From positions 8,098-72,097 of the forward strand of contig JAGCYJ010000010.1 of assembly GCA_017960855.1 (NCBI GenBank): 64,000 bases of DNA, read 5' to 3'. The translations under genes were made by a program, and so were the position numbers. Within the stretch, counting starts at the first letter, position 1, and the number at the start of each line of letters is the position of its first letter. The notes under the pieces were generated by a model. That model saw nothing but the letters and a program-made list of their open reading frames with translations. It did no database searches and was not told the DNA's origin. This document shows, piece after piece, positions 28,988 through 64,000 of the stretch. This DNA is from Alphaproteobacteria bacterium. Its GTDB lineage: Bacteria > Pseudomonadota > Alphaproteobacteria > Rs-D84.

Positions 28988-29053
28988 AAATACTGGACAA
29001 AACACCTTGTTGTGCTATTACTGGATTCTGGACACTATGACAAGGATGTAATC

Positions 29054-31288: not shown

Positions 31289-31309
31289 AATAAACAAAGA
31301 GTATAAATA

Positions 31310-31612
31310 ATGATTAAACCCGATTTAACATTAAGTATGGATGACAAGATATATTTGGCGGTGTCAAAGACCGAAACAGACAAGTTAGTGTTTGTTTATA
31401 CGTTGGCATGCCTTAGAGATGGTGAAAAATCATCTACTTACAGCATGTTTCCAACGCGTGAAATTCATGTGTTTCGTAACAAAGATGCTGCAGATTTGTA
31501 TCATAAAACGATTGAACAAATTGTTGACTTTAATATGAATGACCAAGGACGCAGTGTATTCATTGAAACAAACAACGATTTAATAGAACGTTTCCTGGAA
31601 AACGGCAGATAA
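31310..31612 (+). CDS. Small orphan protein (100 aa)
   Basis: ORF 21 nt downstream of the previous stop, co-oriented, with AGAG upstream. Confidence 0.5.
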   Translation: MIKPDLTLSMDDKIYLAVSKTETDKLVFVYTLACLRDGEKSSTYSMFPTREIHVFRNKDAADLYHKTIEQIVDFNMNDQGRSVFIETNNDLIERFLENGR

Positions 31613-31633
31613 AAAAAGAAAAGGAAGGAAAAA

Positions 31634-31942
31634 ATGAAAAGAGAACGCGTTGAAAAAAAACCTGTAAAGAAAGTCATTTCTTACTATGTGTTGCCACATG
31701 GTGAATCACAATATCAGGTTTGTACTACATACATATGGTACCAAGGAAACGCAATCAATGATATAAAACGCAAGTTCTTTGAAAGCATAATATGTGATGA
31801 TGAAAAATTGGAAAAACTGAGGAAACGTTTTGATAGGTCAGCCGCATTTGTTGAAAAAAGATTGGCTGTTGAATTTCGTCAAATTGGTGCAGGTGAAATC
31901 GCGACCGAAACAACAATAGCTCATCTTATGCATCAACGTTAA
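31634..31942 (+). CDS. Small orphan protein (102 aa)
   Basis: ORF with a strong AAGGAAGGA RBS upstream. Confidence 0.5.
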   Translation: MKRERVEKKPVKKVISYYVLPHGESQYQVCTTYIWYQGNAINDIKRKFFESIICDDEKLEKLRKRFDRSAAFVEKRLAVEFRQIGAGEIATETTIAHLMHQR

Positions 31943-32002
31943 GTTTAGTTGTTGAAATAATTTTTTAAAATCGCTACGCTTGAAAATATAAAGGGGGACA
32001 AG

Positions 32003-33072: not shown

Positions 33073-33149
33073 GCGAGCGTAGCTCAGTTGGCTAGAGCGC
33101 AACCTTGCCAAGGTTGAGGTCGAGGGTTCGAGCCCCTTTGCTCGCACCA
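33073..33149 (+). tRNA. tRNA-Gly (anticodon GCC)
   Basis: GCGAGCGTAGCTCAGTTGGCTAGAGCGCAACCTTGCCAAGGTTGAGGTCGAGGGTTCGAGCCCCTTTGCTCGCACCA folds as a cloverleaf with a CCTTGCCAAGG anticodon arm, as in bacterial tRNA-Gly(GCC). Confidence 0.92.
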
Positions 33150-45854: not shown

Positions 45855-46023
45855 ATGCATTTTTTTTGGGGAAAAAATGCCATTTTTTACTTGCCCAAAT
45901 AATCTCAATTTAGTACGCTTTTCAGCATGAGGATTAAGGGGAAATCTTTTCAGAATTCGGGCGTTTTTTGTCAATCGCCCAAGTGTCAATTAAACAGCAG
46001 GTGAGGGAGTTCTACACGGTTTG

Positions 46024-49000
46024 ATGAAGCGCATTTTGTCAATCTTGTTTATGTGCCTTTTTGTGGTGCTGTCGCCGACACGCGCCAGTGCCGCATGCAC
46101 ATCAAGCCAAATTGACGTTTTGGGTGATGGTACCCAATGCGAAACATCCAAGTTTGAATTGACAACAACATCATTGGCAGCAAATACAACATTCACATTT
46201 ACATTGGGGGCATCCGGTACATTCTATGTTGATTGGGGTGATGGCGGTGCGGTTGAAACAATCGCGCGCGACAGTGTAACCGCCACAGATTATACGCATA
46301 CATATACGACCGCCGGGGTATATACTATACGATTCAGTGGTCTTGCAACGGAATATGATGTATCTAGTAATGGATCTACGACAATATCATTCTATAAAGC
46401 GTCTGGCGGATCCCAGGGAAAGATTGCATCAATTTCTGGTAATTTGGCATCAATATTCCCTTATTTGGGATCGGAAAATAATCAAGCACCAAGGTTTTAT
46501 GGAACTTTTCGTGGTGCAACAAATTTGACGTCAATACCTGCGACTTTGTTCAGTGGTATTACCACTGGAGAGGGTGGGATGTATATGTTTGGTATGACAT
46601 TTTATGGTTGTACTGGTTTGACCAGTATACCGGCGACATTGTTTAGTGGTATTACCACTGGTGCAAATAGCATGTTCTCCAATACATTTTCCGGTTGCAC
46701 GGGGTTAACCAGTTTACCTGAGGGATTGTTCAGCAGTATTACTACTGGGGGATATCAAATGTTCTCCAGTACATTTTCCGGTTGCACGGGATTGACTCGT
46801 ATCCCTGCAAGATTATTCAGCGGTCTTACCACCGTGGGTGGTTATATGTTTCAGTTTCTGTTTAATGGTTGTAAAAACTTGGCTGGTGTCATACCACCGG
46901 ATACTTTTGCTGGATTAACTGCTAATGGTGCTCCAACCAATACTTATATATGGACAAGTGCTTTTACGAATACTAAATTGGCGACATCGTGTCCTGCTGG
47001 CACCCATCAGCATTACACCGGATACGAAAGTAAAAGTACTGGGTTGTTTGAGGACAGGGTTTCATGCGCATGTGATGATGGAACGTGGGGTGATGGCAAC
47101 ACGTGTACAGCATGTGCCAATACACACCCGGCGCATTCATCTTATTATGGTCTTGCAACAACTGCCACATGTCCATGGGCGTGTGATGCTGGGTATTATT
47201 GGGATGGTACCGCATGTTCGGTGTGTTCCAACAGTGCCCCCGCCAACAGTACATTCACACCCGGATCGACAACCGCTACATGTCCGTGGACGTGTAACGC
47301 GGGCTATATTACCAATGGCAATTCGTGCGATGCCCCTGCATTCAGCGTGACAACAACATCATTACCATTTGGCGACAAATTTACATTCAGTTTATCTGCG
47401 GTTGGAACGTTTTATGTTAATTGGGGTGATGGCACCGAAGAAACAATCGTTCGCGATAATACAACCAGCACATGGTATACGCATACATATACAACGCCGG
47501 GGGTACATACAATTAATTTTGGTGGTACCGCAACGGCATATAACACATCTACAAGTGTTGCGACAATATTATTCTATAAATCGTCTGATGGGTCCCAGAA
47601 AAAAATTGCATCAATTTCCGGTAATCTGGCAACGATATTTCCATCTTATGGCACGGATTCTGGACAATCACCACGGTTTAATCGAACATTTCGTGAAGCG
47701 ACTAATTTGACATCAGTTCCTGCGACTTTATTCAGTGGTTTCACCCAAGGGACAAATTATATGTTTTCTGAAACATTTTATGGTTGTACTGGTCTGACCA
47801 GTTTGCCAGCGGGATTATTCAGCAGTTTTACCACAGGTGCAACTTATATGTTTAGTGGTACATTTTATGGTTGTAAGGGTCTGACCAGCTTACCAACGGG
47901 GCTGTTTGGCAATATTACTACTACCACAGGTGCAACTTATATGTTTAATAACACATTTTATGGTTGTACGGGTCTGACCAGTTTGCCGACGGGATTATTC
48001 AGCGGTATGACCAGCGGTACAGGTTATATGTTTTACAACACATTCAAGGGTTGTACTGGTCTGACCAGTTTGCCAGCGGGACTATTCAGCAGTTTTACCA
48101 CAGGTGCAAATTATATGTTTAGTAGTACATTTGAAGGTTGTACGGGTCTGACCAGTTTGCCAGCTGATTTGTTTAGTGGTATGACTACTGGGGCACAGAG
48201 TTTGTTCTCTAGTACGTTTAAAGGTTGTACTGGTCTGACCAGTTTGCCGGATGGATTGTTCAGCAGTATTACCACTGGTGCACAATATATGTTTCTTAGT
48301 ACATTTAATGGATGTACTGGTCTAACTAAATTACCGTCAAGATTATTCAGTGGTCTTACCACCACTGGAAGTTATATGTTTAGCAATACATTTAATGGTT
48401 GTACGAATTTAGGGGGGTATATACCACCGGACACTTTCGCGGGGTTAATTGAGAATGGTTCCCCAAGTGCGAGTATGTGGAATTCCACATTTACAAACAC
48501 ACAGTTGTTAACAGAATGTCCCACTGGTACCGAGCAATATATTACCAGATACGAAGGATCCACCGATGGTACCACTTGGAATGGCAAGGTTTCATGCGGT
48601 TGCGAAGCGGGATATTGGGTTGATGGTGCGACGTGCACGGCATGTTCCAACACAATTCCAGCGCATTCATCTTATACCACGGGCGCGACCAATGCCACAT
48701 GTCCGTGGGTGTGTGATTCGGATTATGTTTCCAACGGCACATCATGCGTCGCACCAGCGTTCAGTGTGACAACAACATCACTGAATGCCAATGATACATT
48801 TACATTCAGTTTAACTGCGGTTGGAACATTTTATGTGAATTGGGGTGACGGTACCCAACAAACGATTGTTCGTACTGATACAACCAGCACATGGTATACG
48901 CATACATATTCATCGGCGGGGACATATACGATTAATTTTGGTGGTATTGCAACGTCATACTATCACGCTGGATATCAGGCGGCAATATCGTTTTATAAAT

Positions 49001-52000
49001 CATCCGGCGGATCACAAGATAAAATCGCGTCTGTTTCTGGTAATTTGGCGACAATATTCCCATATTTGGGTTCGGACGCTAGCCAGAGACCAAAGTTTTA
49101 CCAAACATTTCGTGGGGCAACGAATTTAACGTCTATCTCGGCGGGATTGTTCAGCGGTTTTACCATCGGGGGCGGTCAGATGTTCCATGAAACATTTTAT
49201 GGATGTACTGGTCTGACCAGTATTCCGGCGGGATTATTCAGTTCTATTACCACCGCAGCGGGCACTTCGCAGATGTTTTCAAGTACATTTTACGGATGTA
49301 CGGGTTTGACCACTGTTCCGGCGGATTTGTTCGGTGGCATTACAACCGGTGCGGATCATTTGTTTTATGAAACATTCAGGGGATGTACTGGACTGACCAG
49401 CATACCGGCGGGGTTATTCAATAAAGTAACTTCCTCGGCAGATGCAACTTATATGTTTTATAACACATTTTATGGTTGCACGGGTCTGACCAGTTTGCCG
49501 ACGGGATTATTCAACAGTGTTACCACTGGGGCAGAATATTTGTTCCATGGAACATTTAGGGGGTGCACCGGATTGACCAGTATACCGGCGGGGCTATTCA
49601 GCAGTGTTACGACCGGTGCAAATTATATGTTTATGAACACATTTTATGGATGTACAGGCCTGACCAGTTTTCCTGCGGGCTTGTTCAGCGGACTTACCAC
49701 TGCGGGAAATTATATGTTTGCCTACGTATTTCAAGGTTGCACTAATTTGGCGGGCTTTATACCACCAGATGCTTTTGCGGGGCTGATTGCGAATAATTCG
49801 CCAAACACAACCTATATGTGGAGGGACGCGTTTTACAACACTCAATTGCTGACACAATGTCCAGTTGGTTATACGCAGTATATCACTGGGTACGAAGGAT
49901 CTAGTTATACATCCGCTTGGTACAACAGGGTTTCATGTCAACCATGTCCCGCTGGAACGTATAAGGATGTCGCGGGTAACGAAGCGTGCTCGGCATGTGG
50001 TGTTGGAACATATATGTCGGGTACGGGGGCAACGGAATGCGATGCGTGTACCAATGGACCGGCAAACAGCACTTATACCAGTGGTGGTGGATCAACAAAC
50101 ACTTGCGAATGGTCGTGCGATTCTGGAACGATTCCAACGGGTACATCTTGTGATATACCAAAGTTTGAAGTGACAACGACTGAACTGGATGCGGGTACGA
50201 CATTTACATTTACTTTGTCGGCACAAGGGACATTCTATGTTGACTGGGGCGACGGCAGTGCAGTTCAGACAATCACACGTTCCGATACAACCGCCACCGA
50301 TTACAGTCACACATACGAAACAGCTGGTTCATACACGATAAAGTTTAGCAGCAGTGGCATTACGGCTTATAACGAAGATACGACAACCGCAGCAATCAGT
50401 TTTTATAAATCATCTGGTGGATCACAGGGTAAAATAGCATCTCTTTCTGGCTCGTTGGGGGCGTTGTTCCCAACATTGGCAAGCAGCAGTGGTGGCAGAT
50501 ATGCGCGGTTTATCAATACATTCAGGGGTGCCACCAATCTTACTTCATTGCCGTCAACTTTGTTCAGTGGTGTTGCATCCTCAGGAACATATTTATTTTA
50601 TGGAACATTTTATGGTTGTACGGGACTGACCAGTAATGGAATACCGTCAACGCTGTTCAGCAGTGTCACCACTGGTGGTACCAGAACATTTTATGAGACA
50701 TTCCGTGGTTGTACGGGATTGACAACAATACCGTCGGGATTGTTTAGTACCGTCACAACAAATTCTAATTCTTCCTATTTGTATGTTGGAACATTCCGCG
50801 GTTGTACAGGGTTGACGGAAATACCGTCGGGGCTGTTTAGTCGTGTTACCACAACTTCTACTTATATGTTTCAGAATACATTCTATGGTTGTACGGGGTT
50901 GACCACAATACCATCGGGATTGTTTAGCAACATTAATGCTGGTGGGGCGACTTATCTGTTTAACGGAACATTCTATGGTTGTACGGGTCTAACCAGTATT
51001 CCAGAGGGGTTATTCAGCAGAATTACGGCTGGTAAAGATTACATGTTTTCTGAAACATTTCGTGGGTGTACCAATTTGACGGCATTGCCCAGTGGTTTGT
51101 TCAGTAACATTACGACGACCACCAGTGCTCAGTATTTATTCGATAACACGTTTTTGGGGTGCAGTAAATTGGCCACTGTTCCGGCGAATACATTTAGTGG
51201 AATTACATCAGCTTCTGCAGAAGGTGTCTTTCGTGGCACATTCCAAAGTTGTACCAGTTTGACTAGCATAGATGCTGGATTGTTCAGCGGTATTACCAGT
51301 GCGGTACTTAGGACGTTCAATGCTACTTTCCAAGGGGCTGGTCTGACCAGCATACCAGATGGATTATTCAGTGGTATTACTGCGGGGGCGCATAGTATGT
51401 TTTATTCTACATTCCAAGAATGCACATCGTTGACCGCATTGCCACCAAACTTGTTCGCGAATATTACCAGTGGTGTCGGAAATAGTACATTCCGAAGCAC
51501 GTTTTATGGTTGTTCAAATTTGCGCGGATATGTCCCCCCAACGTTCTTTGCGGGGCTTATTGCGAATAATTCGCCGTACACGGGACCAAATGGCATGGCT
51601 ACTTTGTTCCAGGGTACTAGTTTGGCAACATCCTGTCCGGCGGGCACAACACAATATATTACCGGGTACGAAAGTTATTGGACTTCCAAGGTTTCATGTC
51701 AACCATGTCCCGCGGGAACTTATAAGTCGGGTTCAGGCAATGGTGCGTGCTCGGCATGTGGTGTTGGAACATATATGGCGGACACTGGTGCGACCGCATG
51801 TACCGCGTGTACCAACACAATACCAGAAAATGCGGTCTATTCAACCAATGGTGGTGACGGCGGAACAACCAACACATGCGAATGGTCGTGCGATTCGGGA
51901 ACAATTCCCACCGGCACATCGTGTGAAATGCCAAAGTTCAGTGTCACGACAACGTCAATGGCGGCAAATACGGCGTTTTCGTTTAGTTTGTCGGCAACTG

Positions 52001-53721
52001 GAACATTTTATATTGATTGCGGTGATGGTGGAACGTTAAGACAATTTTCCCCATCCAGCACGATTTCCAACAAGACGATAACCCGTGATAGCGCTTTACC
52101 GTCCAAGTATTCATGTACATGGTCATCGGCGGGTGTACATACGGTTCGTTTCGGTGGTGTGGCAACGGGATACGCTGGTGGGGCCACCAGCAACCCCTAT
52201 GCTCCAATATCGTTTTTTTATGATTCATCAACCGGGCGGAATTTTATTGTATCAGTTGACGGTTCGTTGGGTGCGTTATTTCCACAGTTGGGAACAGAAG
52301 ATGGAAAGTACCCAAAGTTTAATGGTACGTTCCAGAGTGCACCAAATTTAACAACAATTCCAGGTACATTGTTCAGTGGTTTAACCGGTGGCGATTATAT
52401 GTTTAGTCACATGTTTAGTGGTTGTTCATCATTGACCACAATTCCAGATAATCTGTTTAGTGGAATTACGACCAGTGGTAAATCTATGTTTAACGGCACG
52501 TTTTCCCACACTGGTATTACCAGTATCCCATCTGGATTATTTGATGGCGATGACCTTACCACCGGGGCATATGGTATGTTTTGGAGTGTGTTTAGTGGTT
52601 GCTCGTCATTGACTACAATACTGGCGGGGTTGTTTAGCAATTTTACCACCGGTGGATATGGTATGTTTCAAGGAGCGTTTTCTGATTGTACGTCGTTAAC
52701 AACAATTCCAGGGGACTTGTTCAGTGGTATTACCACTGGGGAACCCGCTATGTTTTATGTTACATTTAGTGGTTGTACTGGATTAACGGAAATTCCAGAA
52801 AACTTATTTGCCAATATTACCACAATTTCTGCGATAAATGCGCCTGTGTTTTGGGAAACATTTAGCGATTGTACCAATTTGACTGGTTTTATTCCGCCGA
52901 CTTTGTTCGCGGGATTGATTGCCAATGGTTCGCCGAATCCGTATCCGGGTACTATGCGTGATCCATTTTTTAACACAGGGACGTTAACCGAATGTCCGGC
53001 GGGGTATACGCAGTATATAACTGGTTATGAAGATGATTGGGGTGGCAAGGTTTCGTGCGAACTGTGTCCGGCGGGAACATATAAGGATACCGTGGGAAAT
53101 CAGGCATGTTCAGCGTGCCCAGCTGGGACCTATATTGGAACCACGGGGGCGACCGCGTGTACGGCATGTCCTGCGCTGGATACCGGATATGCTTATGCAG
53201 ATGGAACGGGTTGGACCGGGTGGAATCAGTGTTCGGAACAGATGCGCCCAACAAACTGTTACAGCGGATATTTAACCAAAACCGCAAGCAGCGCATCTGC
53301 ATGGGGAACCGCGGTATCTACGCTCTCTGCCGAGCCGGGATACGAAGTGACAGGCAGTGGCGATAATACGGTATGTTCGGAATGTGGTGTTGGTCGCTAT
53401 GGACCGGGTGGAACAACAGCATGTTCATCCTGCCCAACTGGTTTAACCACGGTTGGATATGGTTCGGGCGCGGACGAAGCGGGCGATTGTGGGCGTATAT
53501 TACATGTGAGTAATGGTGTTCTGTACCTGCGTAGTGTAAAAAAGACAACGCCTTCACTGAATGTCAGAATAGGTAATGATGTTTTCTATGGTAATATGAG
53601 TACAGAACAGATGAATATGAGTGGTAGTTGTGAAGATAACCCCGAACTGAAAGTCAATAATGGAGGAACAATATATTGGATACATGACGACAGCAGTCAT
53701 TTTTGTGGGGTGCCGATGTAG
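46024..53721 (+). CDS. Giant secreted/surface mosaic protein (about 2565 aa): 5 x (beta-sandwich + DUF285/BspA-type LRR array + IPPxTFAGL cap) separated by Cys-rich repeats, plus terminal module
   Basis: 7.7-kb uninterrupted ORF (ATG 46024, with TTG at 46021). Signal peptide MKRILSILFMCLFVVLSPTRASA. Mature N-terminus ACTSSQIDVLGDGTQCETSKF parallels the 1475..4798 protein. Confidence 0.9.
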   Translation: MKRILSILFMCLFVVLSPTRASAACTSSQIDVLGDGTQCETSKFELTTTSLAANTTFTFTLGASGTFYVDWGDGGAVETIARDSVTATDYTHTYTTAGVYTIRFSGLATEYDVSSNGSTTISFYKASGGSQGKIASISGNLASIFPYLGSENNQAPRFYGTFRGATNLTSIPATLFSGITTGEGGMYMFGMTFYGCTGLTSIPATLFSGITTGANSMFSNTFSGCTGLTSLPEGLFSSITTGGYQMFSSTFSGCTGLTRIPARLFSGLTTVGGYMFQFLFNGCKNLAGVIPPDTFAGLTANGAPTNTYIWTSAFTNTKLATSCPAGTHQHYTGYESKSTGLFEDRVSCACDDGTWGDGNTCTACANTHPAHSSYYGLATTATCPWACDAGYYWDGTACSVCSNSAPANSTFTPGSTTATCPWTCNAGYITNGNSCDAPAFSVTTTSLPFGDKFTFSLSAVGTFYVNWGDGTEETIVRDNTTSTWYTHTYTTPGVHTINFGGTATAYNTSTSVATILFYKSSDGSQKKIASISGNLATIFPSYGTDSGQSPRFNRTFREATNLTSVPATLFSGFTQGTNYMFSETFYGCTGLTSLPAGLFSSFTTGATYMFSGTFYGCKGLTSLPTGLFGNITTTTGATYMFNNTFYGCTGLTSLPTGLFSGMTSGTGYMFYNTFKGCTGLTSLPAGLFSSFTTGANYMFSSTFEGCTGLTSLPADLFSGMTTGAQSLFSSTFKGCTGLTSLPDGLFSSITTGAQYMFLSTFNGCTGLTKLPSRLFSGLTTTGSYMFSNTFNGCTNLGGYIPPDTFAGLIENGSPSASMWNSTFTNTQLLTECPTGTEQYITRYEGSTDGTTWNGKVSCGCEAGYWVDGATCTACSNTIPAHSSYTTGATNATCPWVCDSDYVSNGTSCVAPAFSVTTTSLNANDTFTFSLTAVGTFYVNWGDGTQQTIVRTDTTSTWYTHTYSSAGTYTINFGGIATSYYHAGYQAAISFYKSSGGSQDKIASVSGNLATIFPYLGSDASQRPKFYQTFRGATNLTSISAGLFSGFTIGGGQMFHETFYGCTGLTSIPAGLFSSITTAAGTSQMFSSTFYGCTGLTTVPADLFGGITTGADHLFYETFRGCTGLTSIPAGLFNKVTSSADATYMFYNTFYGCTGLTSLPTGLFNSVTTGAEYLFHGTFRGCTGLTSIPAGLFSSVTTGANYMFMNTFYGCTGLTSFPAGLFSGLTTAGNYMFAYVFQGCTNLAGFIPPDAFAGLIANNSPNTTYMWRDAFYNTQLLTQCPVGYTQYITGYEGSSYTSAWYNRVSCQPCPAGTYKDVAGNEACSACGVGTYMSGTGATECDACTNGPANSTYTSGGGSTNTCEWSCDSGTIPTGTSCDIPKFEVTTTELDAGTTFTFTLSAQGTFYVDWGDGSAVQTITRSDTTATDYSHTYETAGSYTIKFSSSGITAYNEDTTTAAISFYKSSGGSQGKIASLSGSLGALFPTLASSSGGRYARFINTFRGATNLTSLPSTLFSGVASSGTYLFYGTFYGCTGLTSNGIPSTLFSSVTTGGTRTFYETFRGCTGLTTIPSGLFSTVTTNSNSSYLYVGTFRGCTGLTEIPSGLFSRVTTTSTYMFQNTFYGCTGLTTIPSGLFSNINAGGATYLFNGTFYGCTGLTSIPEGLFSRITAGKDYMFSETFRGCTNLTALPSGLFSNITTTTSAQYLFDNTFLGCSKLATVPANTFSGITSASAEGVFRGTFQSCTSLTSIDAGLFSGITSAVLRTFNATFQGAGLTSIPDGLFSGITAGAHSMFYSTFQECTSLTALPPNLFANITSGVGNSTFRSTFYGCSNLRGYVPPTFFAGLIANNSPYTGPNGMATLFQGTSLATSCPAGTTQYITGYESYWTSKVSCQPCPAGTYKSGSGNGACSACGVGTYMADTGATACTACTNTIPENAVYSTNGGDGGTTNTCEWSCDSGTIPTGTSCEMPKFSVTTTSMAANTAFSFSLSATGTFYIDCGDGGTLRQFSPSSTISNKTITRDSALPSKYSCTWSSAGVHTVRFGGVATGYAGGATSNPYAPISFFYDSSTGRNFIVSVDGSLGALFPQLGTEDGKYPKFNGTFQSAPNLTTIPGTLFSGLTGGDYMFSHMFSGCSSLTTIPDNLFSGITTSGKSMFNGTFSHTGITSIPSGLFDGDDLTTGAYGMFWSVFSGCSSLTTILAGLFSNFTTGGYGMFQGAFSDCTSLTTIPGDLFSGITTGEPAMFYVTFSGCTGLTEIPENLFANITTISAINAPVFWETFSDCTNLTGFIPPTLFAGLIANGSPNPYPGTMRDPFFNTGTLTECPAGYTQYITGYEDDWGGKVSCELCPAGTYKDTVGNQACSACPAGTYIGTTGATACTACPALDTGYAYADGTGWTGWNQCSEQMRPTNCYSGYLTKTASSASAWGTAVSTLSAEPGYEVTGSGDNTVCSECGVGRYGPGGTTACSSCPTGLTTVGYGSGADEAGDCGRILHVSNGVLYLRSVKKTTPSLNVRIGNDVFYGNMSTEQMNMSGSCEDNPELKVNNGGTIYWIHDDSSHFCGVPM
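46150..53054 (+). repeat. Five coding super-repeats (units start at about 46150, 47338, 48757, 50161 and 51934), each containing 4-11 LRRs of about 28-31 aa
   Basis: Each unit opens with (K/A)F(E/S)(L/V)TTT...GTFY(V/I)(D/N)(W/C)GDG. DNA-level near-identity also occurs inside arrays, e.g. about 80 nt at 47782 versus 48049. Confidence 0.9.
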
Positions 53722-58383: not shown

Positions 58384-58443
58384 TTTGGCTAACCTTGGGG
58401 CATTATAGCGTAGCTAAAAACGATTTCAACAAAGGATTTAATT

Positions 58444-58830
58444 ATGGCCCGAACAACAAACTCTGACACTTTGCCATATGTAGAAAGTCGCTATGAACTG
58501 GGAATGCTGGCATCACAGCGCGTTCGCGATTTGAACGGTGGCGCAGAACCAGTCGTTGAAAAAGGAAACGATAAACCAACGGTTGTCGCACTGCGCGAAA
58601 TCGCCAGTGGCAAACTGGATGTCCAGAATGTTCGTCATGAATTTATTCAATCATACAAGGAAGCACCGATTTCTGAAACAGCCGAAGAAACATTGGAAGT
58701 TGGCACCGAAGACCCGATGTTGCGCGAAATTGATGCGGAATTGGAAAACACATTGGTTGATACCGTAGCGGACGCAGGTGAAGATGTCGTGGATGATGTC
58801 GCGATTGACACACCTGAGGATGCCGAATAA
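58444..58830 (+). CDS. rpoZ: DNA-directed RNA polymerase omega subunit
   Basis: MARTT......V.SRYEL..LASQR.R.L..G........DKPTVVALREIA.GKL, with an acidic tail. Confidence 0.9.
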   Translation: MARTTNSDTLPYVESRYELGMLASQRVRDLNGGAEPVVEKGNDKPTVVALREIASGKLDVQNVRHEFIQSYKEAPISETAEETLEVGTEDPMLREIDAELENTLVDTVADAGEDVVDDVAIDTPEDAE

Positions 58831-58847
58831 TTGAAACCCATATATCC

Positions 58848-58938
58848 GGAGACGTCGCATAGTTGGTCTAGTGCGCCACATTGGAAATGTGGTATACTCG
58901 CAAGGGTATCAAGGGTTCGAATCCCTTCGTCTCCGCCA
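58848..58938 (+). tRNA. tRNA-Ser (anticodon GGA), class II with a long variable arm
   Basis: GGAGACG...CCACATTGGAAATGTGG...variable arm TATACTCGCAAGGGTAT...AAGGGTTCGAATCCCTTCGTCTCCGCCA, 91 nt with encoded CCA. Confidence 0.92.
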
Positions 58939-58945
58939 GAAATTC

Positions 58946-58972
58946 ACCCCGCGTTTGCGGGGTAAATTTTTG
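58946..58972 (+). terminator. Intrinsic terminator after tRNA-Ser
   Basis: accccgc-gttt-gcggggt followed by aaattttt. Confidence 0.5.
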
Positions 58973-59093
58973 GCGGATTCGGGGGCAGATTTGAAGCGTT
59001 TGCAACGAATGTTGCCGGGTTCGAAAACAAGTAGATTTTGCAAGCGAAGCGTGGCGAAATCGTTACGGTTTGCCCGCAGGCACAATGTGCCGA

Positions 59094-59146
59094 GGGAATC
59101 CCTTCGTCTATTATTGTTCATCAAGGACAGGGTTTCGTCTCCGCCA
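59094..59146 (+). repeat. Two partial direct copies of the tRNA-Ser 3' region (att-like scars / pseudo-tRNA debris)
   Basis: GAATCCCTTCGTCT (59096-59109) and ATCAAGG..TTCGTCTCCGCCA (59120-59146) repeat segments of GTATCAAGGGTTCGAATCCCTTCGTCTCCGCCA from the tRNA (58906-58938). Confidence 0.6.
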
Positions 59147-59309
59147 CAAATATTGAACATCCCGTGGTAATTCCGCGGGATGTTCTTTTTCGCCCCGTTT
59201 CCGGCAGTTTTTAGTGATGATATTACCAGTGTATATCGCTACGCGTTTCCAATCCGCCCAAGTTCAGCACAATTATATACTTTGCCCCAAATCCCGATGC
59301 CAGTTTTTA

Positions 59310-59338
59310 TTGATTTTTTGTGCTATTTGTGATATAAT
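59310..59338 (+). promoter_or_regulatory. Near-consensus sigma70 promoter (TTGATT-N17-TATAAT, with TGn extended -10)
   Basis: TTGATT at 59310-59315, a 17-nt spacer ending in TGA, and TATAAT at 59333-59338, about 85 nt upstream of the toxin start. Confidence 0.5.
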
Positions 59339-59352
59339 GAACGCGATTTAGT

Positions 59353-59378
59353 AGACGACATTTTGTCGTCTTTTTTTT
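59353..59378 (+). terminator. Terminator-like hairpin inside the toxin-gene leader (possible attenuator)
   Basis: agacgaca-tttt-gtcgtct followed by T8, lying between the predicted promoter and the ATG at 59423. Confidence 0.4.
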
Positions 59379-59422
59379 ACCCCGCCACGTGCGGACTTTT
59401 TTATTTAACTAAAGGAGTTATA

Positions 59423-60547
59423 ATGCAAACACCAAAATTTTTACGCGATTTATTACAATCTAATAACTATTGGAACAAAAACAGCGCTGAATTTGCAAAA
59501 GCAAATGAATATCTAGAAAAACTGTTTCCTGGCAAATTGCAGCAAGATGCAACTGGTCAATATATTGAACCCAAATACGATATGACCTACGAACAGTTTC
59601 TGGGTGCACAAAAAAAATTTGACGATGACATACAAAATGCAATTCAAGAAGCCGAGGCAGAAGCGGAAGCAGAAAACGAGATTTTGGTCGATTATTCACA
59701 ATTTGTGGAAATCGACGAAGAAATAGATGTTCGTGTTTTAATGCCTTTGGGTGATATACAAAATGAAAAATTGATTGTTTATACACTAAACATTCCAGAT
59801 GACGATGATGAAGAGCCCACCGAGGCAAAAAAGATTTGGATTTGGCACAGTGAAGACGATGAACGTATTTGCGATGATTGTGCATCACATAATGGTGAAG
59901 TATTTGAAGACAAAGATGATATTCCAGATGTTCCTGTTCATCCTAATTGTCGTTGTTGGGTTGAAGAAGTAAAGCTGGACGATAACGGCAAACCAATTTC
60001 CAGCAAGGCTTATAAAGGCCAAAAGCCAGAAGTACCGAAAAATGACAAAGAACCTCAGTCAGAAAAAACACCAACTTTTGACAAACCTGTTGATATAAAA
60101 GAAGGTCAATATGCTAAATTTGATGGCAAAACATTAACAATATATCAAAATGGCAAAGTTGTTGCATCATGGAATGCAGTATCTGGAAAACCTGGTTACC
60201 AAAGTCCAGGATATCAAAATTTAAAAGATAAAGGAACTATTCCAGCAGGAATATATGTAGCAAGACAAAGTGAATTGCAATTCTATAAAGATATCAGTTG
60301 GGGAGATAGACAACGTTCTGCTATCGGATTTGGAACTTGGCGCGGTGGCACCGATTCTTGGGGCAATTCGCGCGTATGGTTGGATGCATCAAAAGACACA
60401 AACACATATGGGCGTAGTGGATTTTCTATTCATGGTGGATCTGTACCGGGTTCTGCAGGATGTATAGATTTAACATCTTCTATGGACAATTTTACAAAAT
60501 GGTTTGAAAATAATGGACATGATTTAATTATCAATGTAAAATATTAG
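59423..60547 (+). CDS. Polymorphic toxin: N-terminal region with a MuF/SPP1-gp7-type CxxC...HPNCRC motif plus a C-terminal Tlde1/DUF2778-like L,D-transpeptidase-fold domain
   Basis: AAGGAG RBS. WIWHSEDDERICDDCASHNGEVFEDKDDIPDVPVHPNCRCW (aa 138-180). C-terminus ...FDGKTLTIY.NGKVVASWNAVSGKPGY...KGTIPAGIYVA...GRSGFSIHGGSVPGSAGCIDL... shows the H...S.GC catalytic pattern. Confidence 0.75.
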   Translation: MQTPKFLRDLLQSNNYWNKNSAEFAKANEYLEKLFPGKLQQDATGQYIEPKYDMTYEQFLGAQKKFDDDIQNAIQEAEAEAEAENEILVDYSQFVEIDEEIDVRVLMPLGDIQNEKLIVYTLNIPDDDDEEPTEAKKIWIWHSEDDERICDDCASHNGEVFEDKDDIPDVPVHPNCRCWVEEVKLDDNGKPISSKAYKGQKPEVPKNDKEPQSEKTPTFDKPVDIKEGQYAKFDGKTLTIYQNGKVVASWNAVSGKPGYQSPGYQNLKDKGTIPAGIYVARQSELQFYKDISWGDRQRSAIGFGTWRGGTDSWGNSRVWLDASKDTNTYGRSGFSIHGGSVPGSAGCIDLTSSMDNFTKWFENNGHDLIINVKY

Positions 60548-60549
60548 GC

Positions 60550-60891
60550 ATGAAACAAAAAATATACCCATTATTGTATACTGTGGCAATATTCTTGTCT
60601 GGGCTTTTTTACATATTTTTATGTGATTTAGCATATTTTGATAGAATAGCAAAAAATGGTGGGATATGGTTGAGTTCATGTTCTTATTTAACAGGACACT
60701 CACAACAGGTATGCATGGCACATTATGATGTGTTGTGTATACTTGGAGTGCTTGGATGGTTAGTGTGGTTAGGATATGTTCTTGTCCCGATCTATAAAAA
60801 CAAAACGTTTTTTATTCCTTTGCTTGGAATACCTGTTTTTTTTATGTTTCAATTGATATTATGTTCAATACTAAAAATAGTATGCTTATAA
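60550..60891 (+). CDS. Candidate cognate immunity protein (113 aa, about 3-4 TM, conserved Cys residues)
   Basis: Starts 2 nt after the toxin stop. Paralogous to 61360..61686, which follows the orphan toxin tip. Confidence 0.6.
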   Translation: MKQKIYPLLYTVAIFLSGLFYIFLCDLAYFDRIAKNGGIWLSSCSYLTGHSQQVCMAHYDVLCILGVLGWLVWLGYVLVPIYKNKTFFIPLLGIPVFFMFQLILCSILKIVCL

Positions 60892-61242
60892 TATTGTAAC
60901 CTGATTCTCCCGCGCAATCTGAAACAAATCATTAACATTTATTTTTAGTTTTCCAGACAAGATTTGATTTATCTTGTCTGGATTCATGTATGCAATGTCC
61001 AGATATCGATAAAATTGACGTGGCGAAGTGTGCAGATTGCGGATGATATTATCAACCCCGCCATCACGTTCATATAATTCGCGATACTTCCATGCGGTGG
61101 CAAAGGCTTTCAAAATTAAATGATTATTGTCGGTGACATTTAATACACCGTTTTTACCACGGTCGTATACCGTATTAACGTATTTCCGTAGGAACACTTT
61201 TTCTGTGATTGTTACACTGTTGTCGTCAATGATGTATTCCAT
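60886..61242 (-). pseudogene. Remnant of a serine-recombinase/resolvase-family gene (C-terminal about 118 aa only)
   Basis: LILKAFATAWKYRELYERDGG.DNIIRNLHTSPRQFYRYLDIAYMNPDKINQILSGKL resembles the L.KA.A.A.RW...L..G.....IA......YV.R.L.L..L.PDIV..IL.G tail of alphaproteobacterial recombinases. No catalytic N-terminal domain is present. Confidence 0.4.
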
Positions 61243-61243
61243 G

Positions 61244-61342
61244 GGTTCTGCGGGTTGCATCGATTTGACAAACGAAATGCCGGGGTTTGCCGATTGGTTT
61301 AAAAACAATGGAAAAGATTTAATTATTAAAGTAGAATACTGA
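61244..61342 (+). pseudogene. Orphan toxin C-terminal tip (33 codons, no start context)
   Basis: GSAGCIDLTNEMPGFADWFKNNGKDLIIKVEY versus GSAGCIDLTSSMDNFTKWFENNGHDLIINVKY at the end of 59423..60547. Similarity begins 1 nt from the recombinase-remnant start codon. Confidence 0.6.
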
Positions 61343-61359
61343 AAAGATAAAGGCACAAA

Positions 61360-61686
61360 ATGAAAAAAATATTAAACAGAATAAGTTATTTTTTAACAGT
61401 ATGTTTGTTTTTTGCCTTGAATATTTTTTTATTTGATTTAGTTTGTATCGGTAAAATCTCAAAATTTAATCATATTTGGGTAAATGTGTGTCCGTTTGAT
61501 GTTGACGGTGAATATTTGGTATGTATGATAAATTATGATATTGCGTTTATTGTGTTTATATTGCCAATAGCGTTTTTTATGTTGTTTTGGTTAATGCGAA
61601 TATACGGCAAACAGGTGTTGCTGGTTCCGTTTTTTGGTTTTTTACTGTTTGTATTATCAATAATAACATATTGGGGATTTGTCTGA
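61360..61686 (+). CDS. Orphan immunity-protein paralog (108 aa, multi-TM)
   Basis: FLFDLVCIGKISKFNHIWVNVCPF..GEYLVCMINYD aligns with FLCDLAYFDRIAKNGGIWLSSCSY..SQQVCMAHYD in 60550..60891. Confidence 0.6.
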   Translation: MKKILNRISYFLTVCLFFALNIFLFDLVCIGKISKFNHIWVNVCPFDVDGEYLVCMINYDIAFIVFILPIAFFMLFWLMRIYGKQVLLVPFFGFLLFVLSIITYWGFV

Positions 61687-61764
61687 AATATTTAAGGTTT
61701 CCTTGTAAAACCCTGTATTTTTCATATATAATACCGTTAAATATTACAACACCGCCACAAAAAT

Positions 61765-61795
61765 CAAACGCCCCAATGGGCGTTTTATTTTTTTT
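61765..61795 (+). terminator. Intrinsic terminator
   Basis: aaacgcccc-aat-gggcgttt followed by tattttttt. Confidence 0.55.
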
Positions 61796-61812
61796 ATATC
61801 GGGCGCAAAAAA

Positions 61813-61840
61813 TTGACAAACAATATATATTGGGTATAAT
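61813..61840 (+). promoter_or_regulatory. Consensus sigma70 promoter TTGACA-N16-TATAAT
   Basis: TTGACA at 61813-61818 and TATAAT at 61835-61840, 22 nt upstream of the ATG at 61863. Confidence 0.55.
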
Positions 61841-61862
61841 CGGTTGTAAATAGGGGTTAAAA

Positions 61863-62507
61863 ATGGATATTACTACACGTGTCTACTTTAGTATAGAGGG
61901 GTCGGGAAACAATGCTTATGGTATGAAGGATATAACTTGTGCAAAAAATACCGATGATATTAATGATCGGAATTTGGAATCTGATTTGGGACTGAAAACT
62001 ACAGAAAGATTATTGCGCGAAATACAATCTTTCTGTAAAGATTTACCTGAAAATCCCATATGTGGCAATCAATTATATAAAATAACAATAAAAAGAAATG
62101 TACGGTTTTTCACACCGGGTATGCGTAATGATTGCTACGGACAGGACGAAACAGATCACTTTAGTTTTATTTTCAGCAAATCAAACAATCTGTTATATTC
62201 ATCAGATTTATTTCAAAACTTTGAACATGTCCTGGTAGAAAATATTTTCAGCAAACGCGATGGGCAACAGTGGAAAGAAGTTAAGGTTAAGGACTTGAAC
62301 TCATATTCACCATTATGGGCCGAGCAAGCAGATTCAAAAGACACTGTCCATGTTTCTTTCATACCTTCAAAGCAGATTGTTGTTAACAGTAAATTACAAG
62401 AAATTTTTCCGAGGGTGACCGGGCGCATACCAGAGGCGTTGATAAATCTGTTGAAACGCAAGACAGAAATTGTTACGCAAGTAAATATGCATGGCATCCA
62501 GCGTTAG
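61863..62507 (+). CDS. Hypothetical protein (214 aa), first gene of a two-gene operon
   Basis: AGGGG RBS. Intact ORF with no recognisable motif. Confidence 0.55.
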   Translation: MDITTRVYFSIEGSGNNAYGMKDITCAKNTDDINDRNLESDLGLKTTERLLREIQSFCKDLPENPICGNQLYKITIKRNVRFFTPGMRNDCYGQDETDHFSFIFSKSNNLLYSSDLFQNFEHVLVENIFSKRDGQQWKEVKVKDLNSYSPLWAEQADSKDTVHVSFIPSKQIVVNSKLQEIFPRVTGRIPEALINLLKRKTEIVTQVNMHGIQR

Positions 62508-62524
62508 TTCAAGGGGACTTTTCT

Positions 62525-63781
62525 GTGTTAAGTATATATGACAAAAATATTATATCATTGGACGAAGCTACGAACATGCCATATATGATTGCAGGTGGTA
62601 AGTTTGCCGGATTGTTTGTCTTGGATAATTTAATGAAGAGTTATAACACGAGATTCAACACCGAATTTGTTGTTCCGCCAACATTTGGGATCCCGTTGTT
62701 AAAGTTTGATGAATATCAGGAAACCAATAAGATACCGGATACATTGATTGATGATGCCATGGATTGCGCCAAAAAACTTGGCGGAAATGTCGCTGTGCGT
62801 TCTTCGGCAGATATAGAAGACCAAAAGGGGAAAACATATTCCGGTCAGTTTGAAAGTGTTTTAAATGTAAAAACGCGCGACCAAATGGTAAACGCCATAG
62901 AGAAGGTGTATAAATCCGCGGCTAATGTACCAAATGCCAGAATGGGAATCGTCCTGCAACAAATGGTTGATAACCCAAAAATGGCTGGGGTGGTGTATTC
63001 TGAAACTTGGTATGGTGGTCCATTCGTGGTAATGAATTATGTAGAAAACGCGTTGGCAGATAAATTGTTGGCAGATGGCGGTCGTGGCGAATATTTTGCA
63101 ATCAGCAAGCCCTTGTTTGATGAAAACCATCAAATGATACGGTTGGATTTAAAAACCTTTAATGATTTAAGGTACAATACTTTCTTTTGCAGAGATTGGC
63201 GTACAATATCCCCAGAAAAACTTGAATCCCAAGACAGAGAAAAATATAAAACACATATTTTGCTTTCTGCGCTGGCTATGCAACTGGAACAGAGTTTGGG
63301 TTATCCCATAGATATGGAATTTGCGGTATCGGCGGATGGAAAAATGAACATATTGCAACAGCGACCATATTGTCTTCCTGAATTTTATAGAAGAGAGATA
63401 GACGACCGCACAACATCCGTCTTTTCATCAGAAACGATAGTGCTGGAAGGCACAGTTGGCTTTATAAAGCGCCTGCATCCATTTTCTGCAAAACCAGAAT
63501 ACGATATAAACATATGGAAATCAGAAGAGAGTATTCGTATTTTCACCAATAAATCGGTTGGCGTAGGATTTAAATTTATGACTTCTTGGTCAAATTCACC
63601 GTTTGAAGCCCAGTATAATCACCATGGTAATATGTCGCGCGAGAATCTTGATTTCACAGAACTGGAATTGTGGGGTCGCAACGCTGAATTTGAAAATATA
63701 GAAGAGGGTGATCGTATTCTGGTTGATATGTATAATGGCAAAGTTAAATTAATTGCCAAGGCCAACGAGCGTCAGAAATAA
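62525..63781 (+). CDS. PEP-utilizing/PPDK N-terminal (ATP-grasp-like nucleotide-binding) domain protein with a possible degenerate swivel-His domain
   Basis: GTG start after GGGGA. GGKFAGL..., VAVRSSADIEDQKGKTYSGQFESVLNV, MGIVLQQMV...AGVVYSE match PPDK_N hallmarks. The C-terminus ...HHGNMSRE...EEGDRILVDMYNGKV resembles a mobile His domain. Confidence 0.7.
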   Translation: MLSIYDKNIISLDEATNMPYMIAGGKFAGLFVLDNLMKSYNTRFNTEFVVPPTFGIPLLKFDEYQETNKIPDTLIDDAMDCAKKLGGNVAVRSSADIEDQKGKTYSGQFESVLNVKTRDQMVNAIEKVYKSAANVPNARMGIVLQQMVDNPKMAGVVYSETWYGGPFVVMNYVENALADKLLADGGRGEYFAISKPLFDENHQMIRLDLKTFNDLRYNTFFCRDWRTISPEKLESQDREKYKTHILLSALAMQLEQSLGYPIDMEFAVSADGKMNILQQRPYCLPEFYRREIDDRTTSVFSSETIVLEGTVGFIKRLHPFSAKPEYDINIWKSEESIRIFTNKSVGVGFKFMTSWSNSPFEAQYNHHGNMSRENLDFTELELWGRNAEFENIEEGDRILVDMYNGKVKLIAKANERQK

Positions 63782-63783
63782 GC

Positions 63784-63807
63784 AAACACCCGCAACCGCG
63801 GGTGTTT
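63784..63807. terminator. Bidirectional terminator
   Basis: aaacacccgc-aacc-gcgggtgttt, a perfect 10-bp stem between convergent genes. Confidence 0.6.
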
Positions 63808-63808
63808 G

Positions 63809-64000
63809 TTATAAAAGATATTTTCCAAGATTTGTTATGTTGCCGGCGCCCATACAGATGACAATATCGCCGTCCTGTATTTGTGGCAAAAGTTCGCGTG
63901 CCACATTTTCCATATCGCCCGCCAGATATTTGCCACCAATTGCGCGCGCAAAGTTTTCACCTGTGATTTCTGGTATGGGGCTTTCGGACGCTGCAAAAAC
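63809..64000 (-). CDS. murC: UDP-N-acetylmuramate--L-alanine ligase, C-terminal end (rest outside the window)
   Basis: The reverse translation ends ...GDIVICMGAGNITNLGKYLL*, the Mur-ligase (MurC-type) GD.V...GAG.I C-terminus. Stop at 63809-63811. Not in the ORF track because it is truncated. Confidence 0.6.
   Translation of the reverse strand, partial: VFAASESPIPEITGENFARAIGGKYLAGDMENVARELLPQIQDGDIVICMGAGNITNLGKYLL

Follow-up and report, generated by a model that had tools for sequence, protein, structure and literature searches.

The window analyzed here is a stretch of 64,000 nucleotides (positions 8,098 to 72,097 of contig JAGCYJ010000010.1, assembly GCA_017960855.1) from an alphaproteobacterium of the order Rs-D84, and the element in question is a gene near its right end (59423..60547) whose product joins a motif of phage head proteins to an enzyme domain of a peptidoglycan-targeting family (Table 1). 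The first-pass annotation of this DNA, made from the letters alone, had described the gene as a polymorphic toxin combining a MuF-type motif with a Tlde1/DUF2778-like domain, and the corresponding profiles, Phage_Mu_F (PF04233) and Tlde1_dom (PF10908), were both found to match the protein above their Pfam gathering cut-offs. The start of the toxin gene was placed at the ATG at 59423, which is preceded by AAAGGAG (59411-59417). Since all homologues begin at this point with the motif M-x-T/I-P-K/N-F-L, a longer open reading frame (ORF) starting at a TTG codon at 59363 is judged to be unused. The protein has no signal peptide.

The similarity to phage head proteins is confined to a short stretch. 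The Phage_Mu_F match (32.2 bits versus a cut-off of 29.6, E 1.9e-7) spans residues 130-180 and takes in profile positions 58-111 of 112 only, and the NCBIfam model TIGR01641 (SPP1 gp7) gave 30.9 bits, under its cut-off of 39.65. Matches to PHROG were limited to minor head and head-morphogenesis families, all of them on the knuckle stretch, and a tblastn search of 50,697 phage records aligned residues 140-191 only, with head-morphogenesis genes. Among predicted viral structures (BFVD), the N-terminal half of the toxin matched proteins named "head morphogenesis" or "minor capsid" over 51-65 residues at a probability of 0.99. The MuF part of the toxin is a zinc knuckle of about 50 residues and not the whole MuF domain. 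The earlier description of a MuF/gp7 hallmark stands for the motif, which passes the Pfam cut-off and has phage head proteins as structural matches; of the domain only the C-terminal half is present, and the gp7 model stays below its cut-off. The individual residues that had been quoted, in the W/C/H/N knuckle and in the H...GC motif, are all there, and in an alignment of 99 full-length homologues W141, C150, C153, H173, N175, C176 and C178, together with H337, G338, G339, G346 and C347, were invariant; C150, C153, H173, C176 and C178 are putative zinc ligands. The other 135 N-terminal residues are specific to the Rs-D84-type lineage, and since the N-terminal domain alone found nothing significant in a fold search of the PDB (best E 0.41), its fold gives no clue to function.

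For the C-terminal domain, profile and model evidence predict an L,D-transpeptidase fold of the Tlde1/DUF2778 type with a catalytic His and Cys, in agreement with the first-pass annotation. This evidence included Pfam matches to Tlde1_dom (30.7 bits versus a cut-off of 30.1, residues 252-363) and YkuD (PF03734, 27.5 bits versus 23.4), and an AlphaFold model of the toxin (predicted local distance difference test score, pLDDT, 80.8) for which the best PDB match in Foldseek was Tlde1a (7uma/7uo3, E 3.8e-6, TM score 0.60 on the target), followed by YkuD and LdtMt2. The family profile also reached Salmonella Tlde1a by sequence (E 3.5e-5), with His337 and Cys347 aligned to the His and Cys of Tlde1a and the W-G-x-x-R segment of the family aligned to ANWGYNRIRLE of Tlde1a, a stretch in which the capping-subdomain Trp of that protein probably lies. 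The spacing of His337 and Cys347, ten residues, is the same as that reported for H121 and C131 of DUF2778 (bioRxiv 2020.02.18.954545). The window protein therefore shares with the described Tlde1/Tae5-7 (DUF2778) effectors (bioRxiv 2020.02.18.954545; PMC9638812; PDB 7uma) the L,D-transpeptidase fold, the His-Cys spacing and the expected periplasmic action, and by analogy with Tlde1 it would attack the cell wall. It differs from them in that identity is 21-27%, the domain is fused behind an N-terminal region of 228 residues and there are no type VI secretion genes nearby.

A large protein collection gave 465 related proteins, and species-representative genomes gave 391 toxin loci. The best 80 of the 391 loci, in which ORFs were called, clustered and numbered (c numbers and IMM_A are labels of this analysis), all belong to uncultured gut or rumen Alphaproteobacteria, many of them named Candidatus (Ca.) Enterousia, and several Ca. 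Enterousia-like genomes hold more than one toxin locus. Ca. Enterousia is a member of the order Rs-D84, has genomes of <1 Mb and is thought to depend on partner cells (PMC12306168). Across the family a shared N-terminus of 200 residues, 67-89% identical, is followed by a C-terminus of the Tlde1, Phage_lysozyme (two subtypes) or GH108 kind, and the payload switches directly after the sequence YKGQKPE, with a short linker leading into the enzyme domain. Among 1.84 billion representatives, the full N-terminal domain (query residues 1-206) was covered by ~20 clusters at 50% identity. In the comparison of the window with locus L014, synonymous divergence rose from 0.046 for the N-terminal portion to 0.742 for the C-terminal one, a 16-fold jump that indicates replacement of the C-terminus by recombination. 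The ratio of nonsynonymous to synonymous substitution rates (dN/dS) was 0.09-0.36 in both halves, and both halves are under purifying selection.

The gene next to the toxin tracks the class of the enzyme. In 28 of 30 cases a Tlde1-type toxin is followed by one of three small membrane-protein families, among them IMM_A, the family of the window gene at 60550..60891, which has 65 members in 48 loci. The neighbor of lysozyme-type toxins is a secreted protein (c16) or a lipoprotein (c10) in 12 of 14 and that of T4-type lysozyme toxins a 330-residue lipoprotein (c51) in five of six, and GH108-type toxins have next to them a secreted 144-residue protein on the opposite strand (c9) in seven of 11; signal peptides and lipoboxes on the lysozyme- and GH108-class partners were read by eye. 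None of the partner-gene products matched Pfam. Most of the 80 loci also have truncated toxin tips and additional partner genes downstream, and several paralogous membrane-protein genes can trail a single toxin. The partner genes probably encode immunity proteins specific to the toxin class. Polymorphic toxins, sensu Zhang et al. 2012, have a shared N-terminus with unrelated C-termini, an adjacent type-specific gene, and orphan cassettes with signs of recombination; all of these were found here, the role of the adjacent gene in immunity being the part that we infer. The earlier view of the gene as a polymorphic toxin is borne out by the single N-terminus with Tlde1, lysozyme or GH108 domains, by the class-specific partners and, within the window, by a toxin stub and a second immunity paralogue.

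In the window, the immunity candidate starts 2 nt downstream of the toxin, and its product has a Cys-containing loop that is predicted to be periplasmic, the topology having been read by eye. The orphan tip at 61244..61342 is 69% identical to toxin residues 343-374 (E 9e-15), and the product of the orphan paralogue at 61360..61686 is 28% identical to the immunity candidate (E 1e-10). The minus-strand ORF between the two immunity genes has relatives in three other loci, and longer relatives, of 214 residues, are also known (L074 2621-3265); we take it to resemble the C-terminal part of some serine recombinases, a likeness that no profile match supports. The cassette lies next to a tRNA-Ser gene. 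In an islet-free sister strain (L003/L004, 94% nucleotide identity), homology extends to 58938, and the order is rpoZ-tRNA-Ser, a small GIY-YIG gene and then a PPDK_N gene; because this strain is without 59157-61807, the cassette is a strain-variable islet; its place at tRNA-Ser is as the first-pass annotation had it. BLAST against L003/L004 places the start of the insertion at ~59157, just past a strong terminator hairpin which is predicted to insulate the cassette from rpoZ and the tRNA, and shows the segment 59058-59156 to be retained in the sister strain at 93% identity. The partial repeats of the tRNA-Ser 3' end within that segment resemble remnants of former attachment sites.

Table 1. 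Positions of the toxin cassette and its control elements in the window
Feature	Position	Strand	Evidence
tRNA-Ser(GGA), left anchor of the variable islet	58848..58938	+	ARAGORN; Rfam tRNA, 59 bits
Partial copies of the tRNA-Ser 3' end, GAATCCCTTCGTCT and TTCGTCTCCGCCA	59092..59148	+	Inspection of the sequence
Strong terminator hairpin, 13 pairs	59155..59185	+	Terminator scan
Whole promoter-leader unit, covariance model R1	59301..59425	+	114.8 bits, E 4.5e-16
Promoter TTGATT - 17 nt - TATAAT, extended -10 (TGA)	59310..59338	+	Promoter scan, 10/12 matches plus TG
Leader hairpin 1 (AGACGAC/GTCGTCT, 59353-59371), then 8 T; terminator-like	59353..59378	+	Terminator scan, RNA fold, compensatory changes
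Leader hairpin 2 (CCGC/GCGG, 59382-59394), then 6 T	59382..59402	+	RNA fold
Toxin gene	59423..60547	+	ORF of 374 residues; homologues, Pfam, model, dN/dS
N-terminal carrier domain, residues 1-200, ending at junction YKGQKPE	59423..60022	+	Lineage-specific; kept across all C-terminal classes
MuF-type zinc knuckle, residues 138-180 (putative ligands C150, C153, H173, C176, C178)	59834..59962	+	PF04233, PHROG, BFVD, tblastn
Predicted Tlde1-type L,D-transpeptidase-fold domain, residues 229-374 (His337, Cys347)	60107..60544	+	PF10908, PF03734, Foldseek, profile alignment
Candidate cognate immunity gene, 113 residues, three predicted membrane helices	60550..60891	+	Neighbor clustering; no Pfam match
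ORF of 156 residues, overlapping the toxin stub, between the two immunity genes	60886..61356	-	No Pfam or PHROG match
Orphan toxin tip, the final 32 codons of another Tlde1 allele (GSAGCIDLT...KVEY)	61244..61342	+	Homology to toxin residues 343-374
Orphan immunity paralogue, 108 residues	61360..61686	+	Same cluster as 60550..60891
Bidirectional terminator, right edge of islet	61766..61785	.	Terminator scan; sister-strain homology resumes at 61808

Expression of the toxin appears to be controlled by a conserved unit. The near-consensus promoter that the first-pass annotation had noticed ahead of the gene was recovered (TTGATT-17-TATAAT with a TG extension, at 59310-59338), and it is followed by two hairpins. 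Fifty-two distinct loci, located at different chromosomal sites and covering every payload type, share this layout in the 130 nt upstream of the ATG: first, in many cases, a terminator directly adjoining the -35 element; then TTGAyy, 17 nt and TGnTATAAT; a gap of 10-15 nt; two hairpins; and the ribosome-binding site. In the relatives the first hairpin is GC-rich and followed by 7-9 T, and the second, also of GC pairs, by 6-8 T. Hairpin 1 has compensatory changes at three of its six pairs, and the distinct stem sequences, 27 for hairpin 1 and 17 for hairpin 2, are all paired. At least two terminator-like hairpins within 135 nt upstream of the ATG were present in 42 of the 52 toxin leaders versus seven of 840 other genes in the same loci. 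The R1 covariance model of the whole unit had a single match in the 64 kb and 99 matches in 1.29 Mb of related loci (L005-L091); Rfam, searched over 58400-64000, placed no family in the leader. Beyond the main family, the R1 leader precedes toxins with other N-termini, stand-alone lysozymes, c50 (described below), an outer-membrane-protein-like gene and Mtd_N tail-fiber-like proteins. By analogy, the combination of a strong promoter with tandem terminators would correspond to the design of phage late operons, and the leader would be a promoter whose transcripts end after 30-60 nt unless read-through is induced. As a separate observation, an R1-type leader also stands before a methyltransferase gene in L108 and L169. 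The leader pattern had 36 matches in IMG/VR, among which that in L108 alone looks genuine (68 bits, before the DNA methyltransferase); the match in L124 was dismissed as a chance match in an unrelated phage.

Two explanations that make little of the toxin-immunity relationship can be weighed at this point. The cassette could be an endolysin-holin pair for particle release or for type 10-like secretion, in which the downstream small membrane protein lets a cytoplasmic hydrolase through. The missing signal peptide would suit this, as would the gene for a 113-residue, three-helix membrane protein 2 nt downstream, the sharing of the leader with stand-alone lysozyme genes and the resemblance of that leader to a phage late-gene control region. 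However, the partner type tracks the enzyme class, and the partners of lysozyme and GH108 enzymes are secreted proteins or lipoproteins, often on the opposite strand, which is not what a holin would be; several paralogous membrane-protein genes can stand behind one toxin; the orphan tip and spare partner gene of the window are a signature of toxin-immunity displacement; and an endolysin has no need of a conserved N-terminal domain of 200 residues. We consider this account very improbable. Lower still is our expectation that the islet is a decaying prophage remnant without present function. Its architecture is phage-derived and it lies at a tRNA with att-like repeats, but hundreds of full-length homologues exist, dN/dS is 0.09-0.36, the promoter, leader and ribosome-binding site are kept in 52 loci, and the catalytic and zinc-binding residues are invariant, so that this explanation can be practically set aside.

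The surroundings of the toxin were surveyed for an export apparatus. Pfam families for 34-64 kb of the window were taken from precomputed annotation of near-identical contigs, and for 0-34 kb 20 further ORFs were scanned and the remaining ones (GroEL/ES, Era, Tgt, QueA and similar) were recognized by eye. No phage or type VI families were found among the window ORFs scanned, the others being judged by eye, nor did any conserved secretion-type or phage neighbor stand out among the clustered ORFs of the 80 related loci; the earlier remark that neither apparatus is visible in the 64 kb agrees with this. The content of the window is ordinary for a chromosome and includes rpoZ, an MtaB-like gene, PBP5, SmpB, LysRS, S4, FtsH, M23 peptidases, BamD and giant surface proteins. 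Exact-sequence look-ups of three window proteins gave no match, probably owing to a start-codon or single-residue difference. One alternative is a type VI cargo effector like Salmonella Tlde1 whose secretion genes lie elsewhere in the genome: both by solved structure and by sequence family, Tlde1a comes nearest to the toxin, and the described Tlde1/Tae5-7 proteins are type VI effectors. Against it, no type VI family occurs among the scanned window ORFs or in the precomputed Pfam annotation of six related toxin loci, no conserved secretion-type neighbor stands out in the clustered ORFs of the 80 loci, and a Pfam scan of the whole toxin found no PAAR, VgrG, Rhs or MIX module. The genomes are also <1 Mb, with secretion unmentioned in PMC12306168, and the authors of the DUF2778 study note members beside other secretion systems (bioRxiv 2020.02.18.954545). 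Finally, the window immunity candidate is a polytopic membrane protein with no Pfam match, unrelated to Tldi1, which is a periplasmic DUF2195 protein. We regard type VI delivery as quite unlikely, though a shade above the endolysin-holin pair.

The architecture probably has a phage origin. In the search with residues 1-206 among the 1.84 billion representatives, ~300 matched the knuckle alone, and 53 had the knuckle followed by at least 100 residues, with C-termini that are for the most part wall hydrolases and include lysozyme (13), M23 (six), GH108 (six), Tlde1 (three) and M15 (one). One of these proteins, P0215 (knuckle plus M23), is encoded among the virion genes of a T7-like phage (locus L130). 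A second, P0168, has the knuckle at residues 1-55, then a coiled coil and M23, and lies in a non-phage islet (L092 4000-12800) with a secreted partner on the opposite strand, an orphan lysozyme and a GH108 gene, adjoining two-partner secretion (TPS) genes; because it encodes this ShlB/TPS pair, the host, a low-GC bacterium, has an outer membrane. The L092 bacterium shows the same toxin logic as the window family with a minimal tag. Near several toxin arrays there is also c50, a 201-residue protein in which a virion-lysin domain (phrog_873, 7182) is joined to the same knuckle. A 401-residue gene upstream of c50 in L007 was considered as a portal and ruled out, since its product carries a membrane helix at the N-terminus and matches nothing in Pfam or PHROG. 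Podovirus ejection lysins, including P0215, share with the window protein a head-associated module fused to a wall hydrolase without a signal peptide, and T7 gp16 is a virion-internal podovirus protein with a transglycosylase domain. The window gene differs from these lysins in lying outside a phage and in having an immunity partner, orphan cassettes and allelic C-termini. The best reading is that the toxin-immunity module derives from phage ejection lysins.

In the published view, MuF fusions are effectors in phage heads and virion peptidoglycan enzymes are aids to injection (PMC5512222; PMC3482391). The MuF polymorphic toxins (Jamet et al. 2017, PMC5576092; Zhang et al. 2012, PMC3482391) share with the window family an N-terminal MuF/gp7 HPNCRC knuckle, exchangeable C-terminal toxins, an adjoining immunity gene and a proposed logic of packaging in the phage head. 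Unlike them, the window family has only the last half (~50 residues) of the MuF domain; it occupies chromosomal islets instead of prophages with neighboring portal, terminase and capsid genes, a distant member in L131 being the exception; its hosts are reduced-genome Alphaproteobacteria and not mainly Firmicutes; and its payloads are all peptidoglycan hydrolases acting in the periplasm. The MuF toxins of the 2017 survey were found in prophages and have cytoplasmic payloads; the survey reports nucleases, metallopeptidases, ADP-ribosyltransferases and RelA-like domains, and the words "lysozyme" and "peptidoglycan" are absent from it (PMC5576092).

The distant member, P0151, has the same N-terminal family and a lysozyme payload. 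In L131 the genes encoding a terminase nuclease domain, a 407-residue portal and Bbp19 lie at a distance of 4 kb from it, and this terminase-portal operon has an R1-type promoter-hairpin leader. Homologues of the portal number >4569, and the best 120 are 74-79% identical, 403-415 residues long and located on chromosomal contigs of up to 352 kb. Eighty portal loci (900 kb) were scanned for knuckle-bearing ORFs; 34 of them are metagenome loci of at least 12 kb, of which ~28, like L132, have one gene order, on contigs that reach 935 kb (L146). The order comprises a first block with scaffold, capsid, tail tube A, nozzle and the terminase ATPase half; a middle part on the opposite strand with two genes of no assigned function and dnaB; and a last part with the terminase nuclease half, portal, Bbp19 and a small membrane protein (g86). 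The terminase large subunit is thus split in two conserved ORFs 3.3 kb apart (L132 5167-5799 and 9137-9979; the same in L135-L204). The cluster is strictly syntenic and belongs to chromosomes of Rs-D84-like gut Alphaproteobacteria, with L132 1-11711, L131 8106-13395 and L135-L204 as examples; it is absent from the window.

The structural proteins of the cluster are conserved to the same degree as DnaB, with dN/dS <=0.14 and synonymous sites saturated. Among cultured phages, Pelagibacter podoviruses come closest, at 37% identity, and the portal and capsid of L130 share 46% and 60% identity with their counterparts in the chromosomal cluster. Its structural genes are chromosomally fixed, co-diverge with host genes and are under purifying selection, the pattern used to recognize gene transfer agent (GTA)-like elements. 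From these sequence comparisons the cluster looks like a domesticated, vertically inherited podovirus module of a GTA-like kind. With the known GTAs (RcGTA and BaGTA; FpGTA in PMC12946183) it shares a chromosomal location, inheritance with the host, purifying selection, division among loci and the lack of replication and lysogeny genes; it differs in being of podovirus type with a terminase split around dnaB, and a toxin-carrying role for it is hypothetical. We found no published description of this cluster in the literature searched; an element of Faecalibacterium has been called the first podovirus-like GTA (2026 paper, PMC12946183).

Several links between the cluster and toxins were observed. 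In L084, which has a toxin of the main family, the end of the g86 gene lies 9 kb away and is followed by an Mtd_N fiber gene; in L204 an Mtd_N gene with an R1 leader is 9 kb from the portal; and in L035 (Ca. Enterousia sp.) the DNA immediately upstream of the toxin is colinear with the PriA-MiaA-GAPDH stretch that flanks the portal cluster. The Mtd_N fiber genes carry the same leader as the toxins. Small stand-alone Mtd_N proteins (159-197 residues, 41-59 bits, with a weak Gp53-like C-terminus) were seen among housekeeping genes near toxin islets, at L026 15879-16445, L064 5105-5671, L086 3666-4259, L084 19718-20197 and L044 3843-4355, all on the minus strand. A general linkage of toxins to portals was ruled out, as none of the 34 long loci showed one and proximity was seen only in L131 and L084.

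If such a particle exists, the toxin need not be mainly a weapon. It could be the ejected wall-opening lysin of a domesticated GTA-like particle, polymorphic because recipients evolve inhibitors, with the "immunity" proteins limiting self-damage or excluding non-kin particles and phages with lysins of this sort. The presence of P0215 among virion genes is a phage precedent for this, c50 joins a virion-lysin domain to the same knuckle, the two terminase halves are conserved under purifying selection, which suggests persistent DNA packaging, and the published view of virion peptidoglycan enzymes (PMC5512222) is of the same kind. The occurrence of several toxin loci per <1 Mb genome, with orphan tips and spare immunity genes, is however typical of inter-strain antagonism; Tlde1-type enzymes are lethal effectors and not local hole-punchers (bioRxiv 2020.02.18.954545); and there is no general linkage to the podovirus cluster. 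We therefore think it unlikely that the family serves in this way.

Somewhat higher, although still in the unlikely range, we place a diffusible, pesticin- or colicin M-like bacteriocin, that is, a signal-less protein freed by the lysis of a few producers, whose N-terminal domain crosses the outer membrane via a receptor so that the wall is attacked from the periplasm while immunity protects kin. Pesticin and colicin M bacteriocins are modular, have no signal peptide, act on the wall in the periplasm and have periplasmic or membrane-anchored immunity. Similarly, all payloads of the family act in the periplasm, signal peptides or lipoboxes were read by eye on the partners of lysozyme- and GH108-class toxins, the toxin is without a signal peptide, one relative matches the Pesticin Pfam family, no secretion machine lies near any of the 80 loci, and tight transcriptional gating suits a costly or lethal release. 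The window toxin nevertheless has no recognizable TonB box or receptor-binding region and no lysis gene was recognized, no colicin or pesticin domain in the PDB resembles its N-terminal fold, and a bacteriocin leaves unexplained why a phage head-protein knuckle is conserved in the N-terminus.

Taken together, we consider it probable that the gene encodes a two-part, exchangeable antibacterial toxin with an adjacent antidote gene, in a Ca. Enterousia-like (Rs-D84) gut alphaproteobacterium. Expression would normally be aborted in the leader and be released by antitermination, as for phage late genes. In the periplasm of any cell without the matching immunity protein, the enzyme would cut or exchange the D-Ala that ends the tetrapeptide stems of peptidoglycan. 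As for export, the knuckle may dock the toxin inside a phage-type head, from which it would be ejected into the target periplasm, the vehicle being a podovirus-like particle built from scaffold, capsid, tail tube A, nozzle, split terminase, portal and Bbp19, plus an Mtd_N fiber. Such capsid-mediated delivery is plausible, and among the delivery candidates we rank the domesticated podovirus-like particle first and a lysis-released bacteriocin next, with type VI unlikely; even granting the toxin, though, we hold docking in a head, with the podovirus-like cluster as vehicle, only as a tentative view that falls a little short of an even chance. More speculative, and in our opinion doubtful, is the full proposal that Rs-D84 bacteria use a vertically inherited podovirus-derived particle as a protein-injecting weapon, in which knuckle-tagged wall hydrolases would be loaded via the portal and ejected into the periplasm of rival or host cells, immunity arrays would protect kin, and an antitermination switch would fire toxins and tail fiber together.

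A number of observations weigh against parts of this explanation. With regard to the toxin itself, its toxicity, target bond and neutralization are a matter of inference, a polytopic membrane protein is an unusual type of immunity for a peptidoglycan enzyme, and hairpin 2 of the window, with four pairs, is weaker than in most relatives. With regard to the capsid route, the podovirus cluster was shown for related genomes only; a knuckle-bearing ORF within 10 kb of the portal was found in none of the 34 loci of at least 12 kb; and an alignment scan of IMG/VR viral contigs with the N-terminus found no relative. General co-regulation of the structural cluster by the R1 leader is unsupported, the leader standing before structural genes only in L131. 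Promoter-equipped stand-alone lysozyme genes without the N-terminal domain exist, and at least two N-terminal types without the HPNCRC knuckle have identical payload classes and leader, from which it follows that the knuckle is not the sole possible address tag. These other N-terminal types occur in the same lineage (L028 15794-16792 and L075 8716-9705, both on the minus strand; L085 9698-10510 and 14383-15696; L079 3398-4162), have the same Tlde1 or GH108 payloads and the same leader, and share another Cys/His motif, e.g., V-x-x-Y-x-R-x-x-G-x-x-V-x-A-Y-E-R-I-C.

Elsewhere in the window, a perfect sigma-70 consensus promoter (TTGACA-16-TATAAT, 12/12) at 61813-61840 precedes an ORF of 214 residues (61863-62507) that has no Pfam, NCBIfam or PHROG match and is absent from the sister strain. 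A 125-bp segment at 61759-61882 recurs downstream of the PPDK_N gene in L003/L004 at 81% identity. The PPDK_N gene of the window (62525-63781, 86% nucleotide identity in the sister strain) encodes a 418-residue protein that consists of the ATP-grasp part only of phosphoenolpyruvate-utilizing enzymes and rifampicin phosphotransferases, the swivel and His domains being missing. The region 29012-32980, by tRNA-Gly (33073-33149), is of low GC content (0.36 versus ~0.44), contains ORFs of 758, 100, 102 and 325 residues without a Pfam match, of which the first also has no PHROG match, and may be a second tRNA-linked islet. Three very large secreted repeat proteins, of 2566 (46021-53721; PKD, LRR_5 and Ephrin_rec_like repeats), 1350 (36762-40814) and 1107 residues (1475-4798; DUF285), occupy about a quarter of the window in a genome of <1 Mb, and may be adhesins for a partner-dependent life style.

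The delivery route is how polymorphic toxins are classed, and the window family combines a phage head tag with the lack of a prophage, payloads directed only at the wall and very small gut genomes. What is of a known kind here is the polymorphic toxin with cognate immunity; what is new is that, in a gut alphaproteobacterium with a reduced genome, a chromosomal islet reuses a phage head-protein knuckle for wall-degrading enzymes. The family is a test case for the existence of MuF delivery without a live phage, and it provides a checkable link among three things not previously connected: MuF-type toxins, Tlde1-type enzymes and a conserved domesticated podovirus cluster. It also supplies dozens of natural toxin-immunity pairs against peptidoglycan, and its compact regulatory unit, a consensus promoter with tandem terminators, is suited to in vitro testing. 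If true, the proposal of a weapon particle would make this the first chromosomal, immunity-paired, capsid-delivered toxin system and a new kind of domesticated phage element. The host order is uncultured and thought to depend on partner cells, and if attachment to other cells is the way of life of Rs-D84 bacteria, they may use the enzymes as tools for opening their partners.

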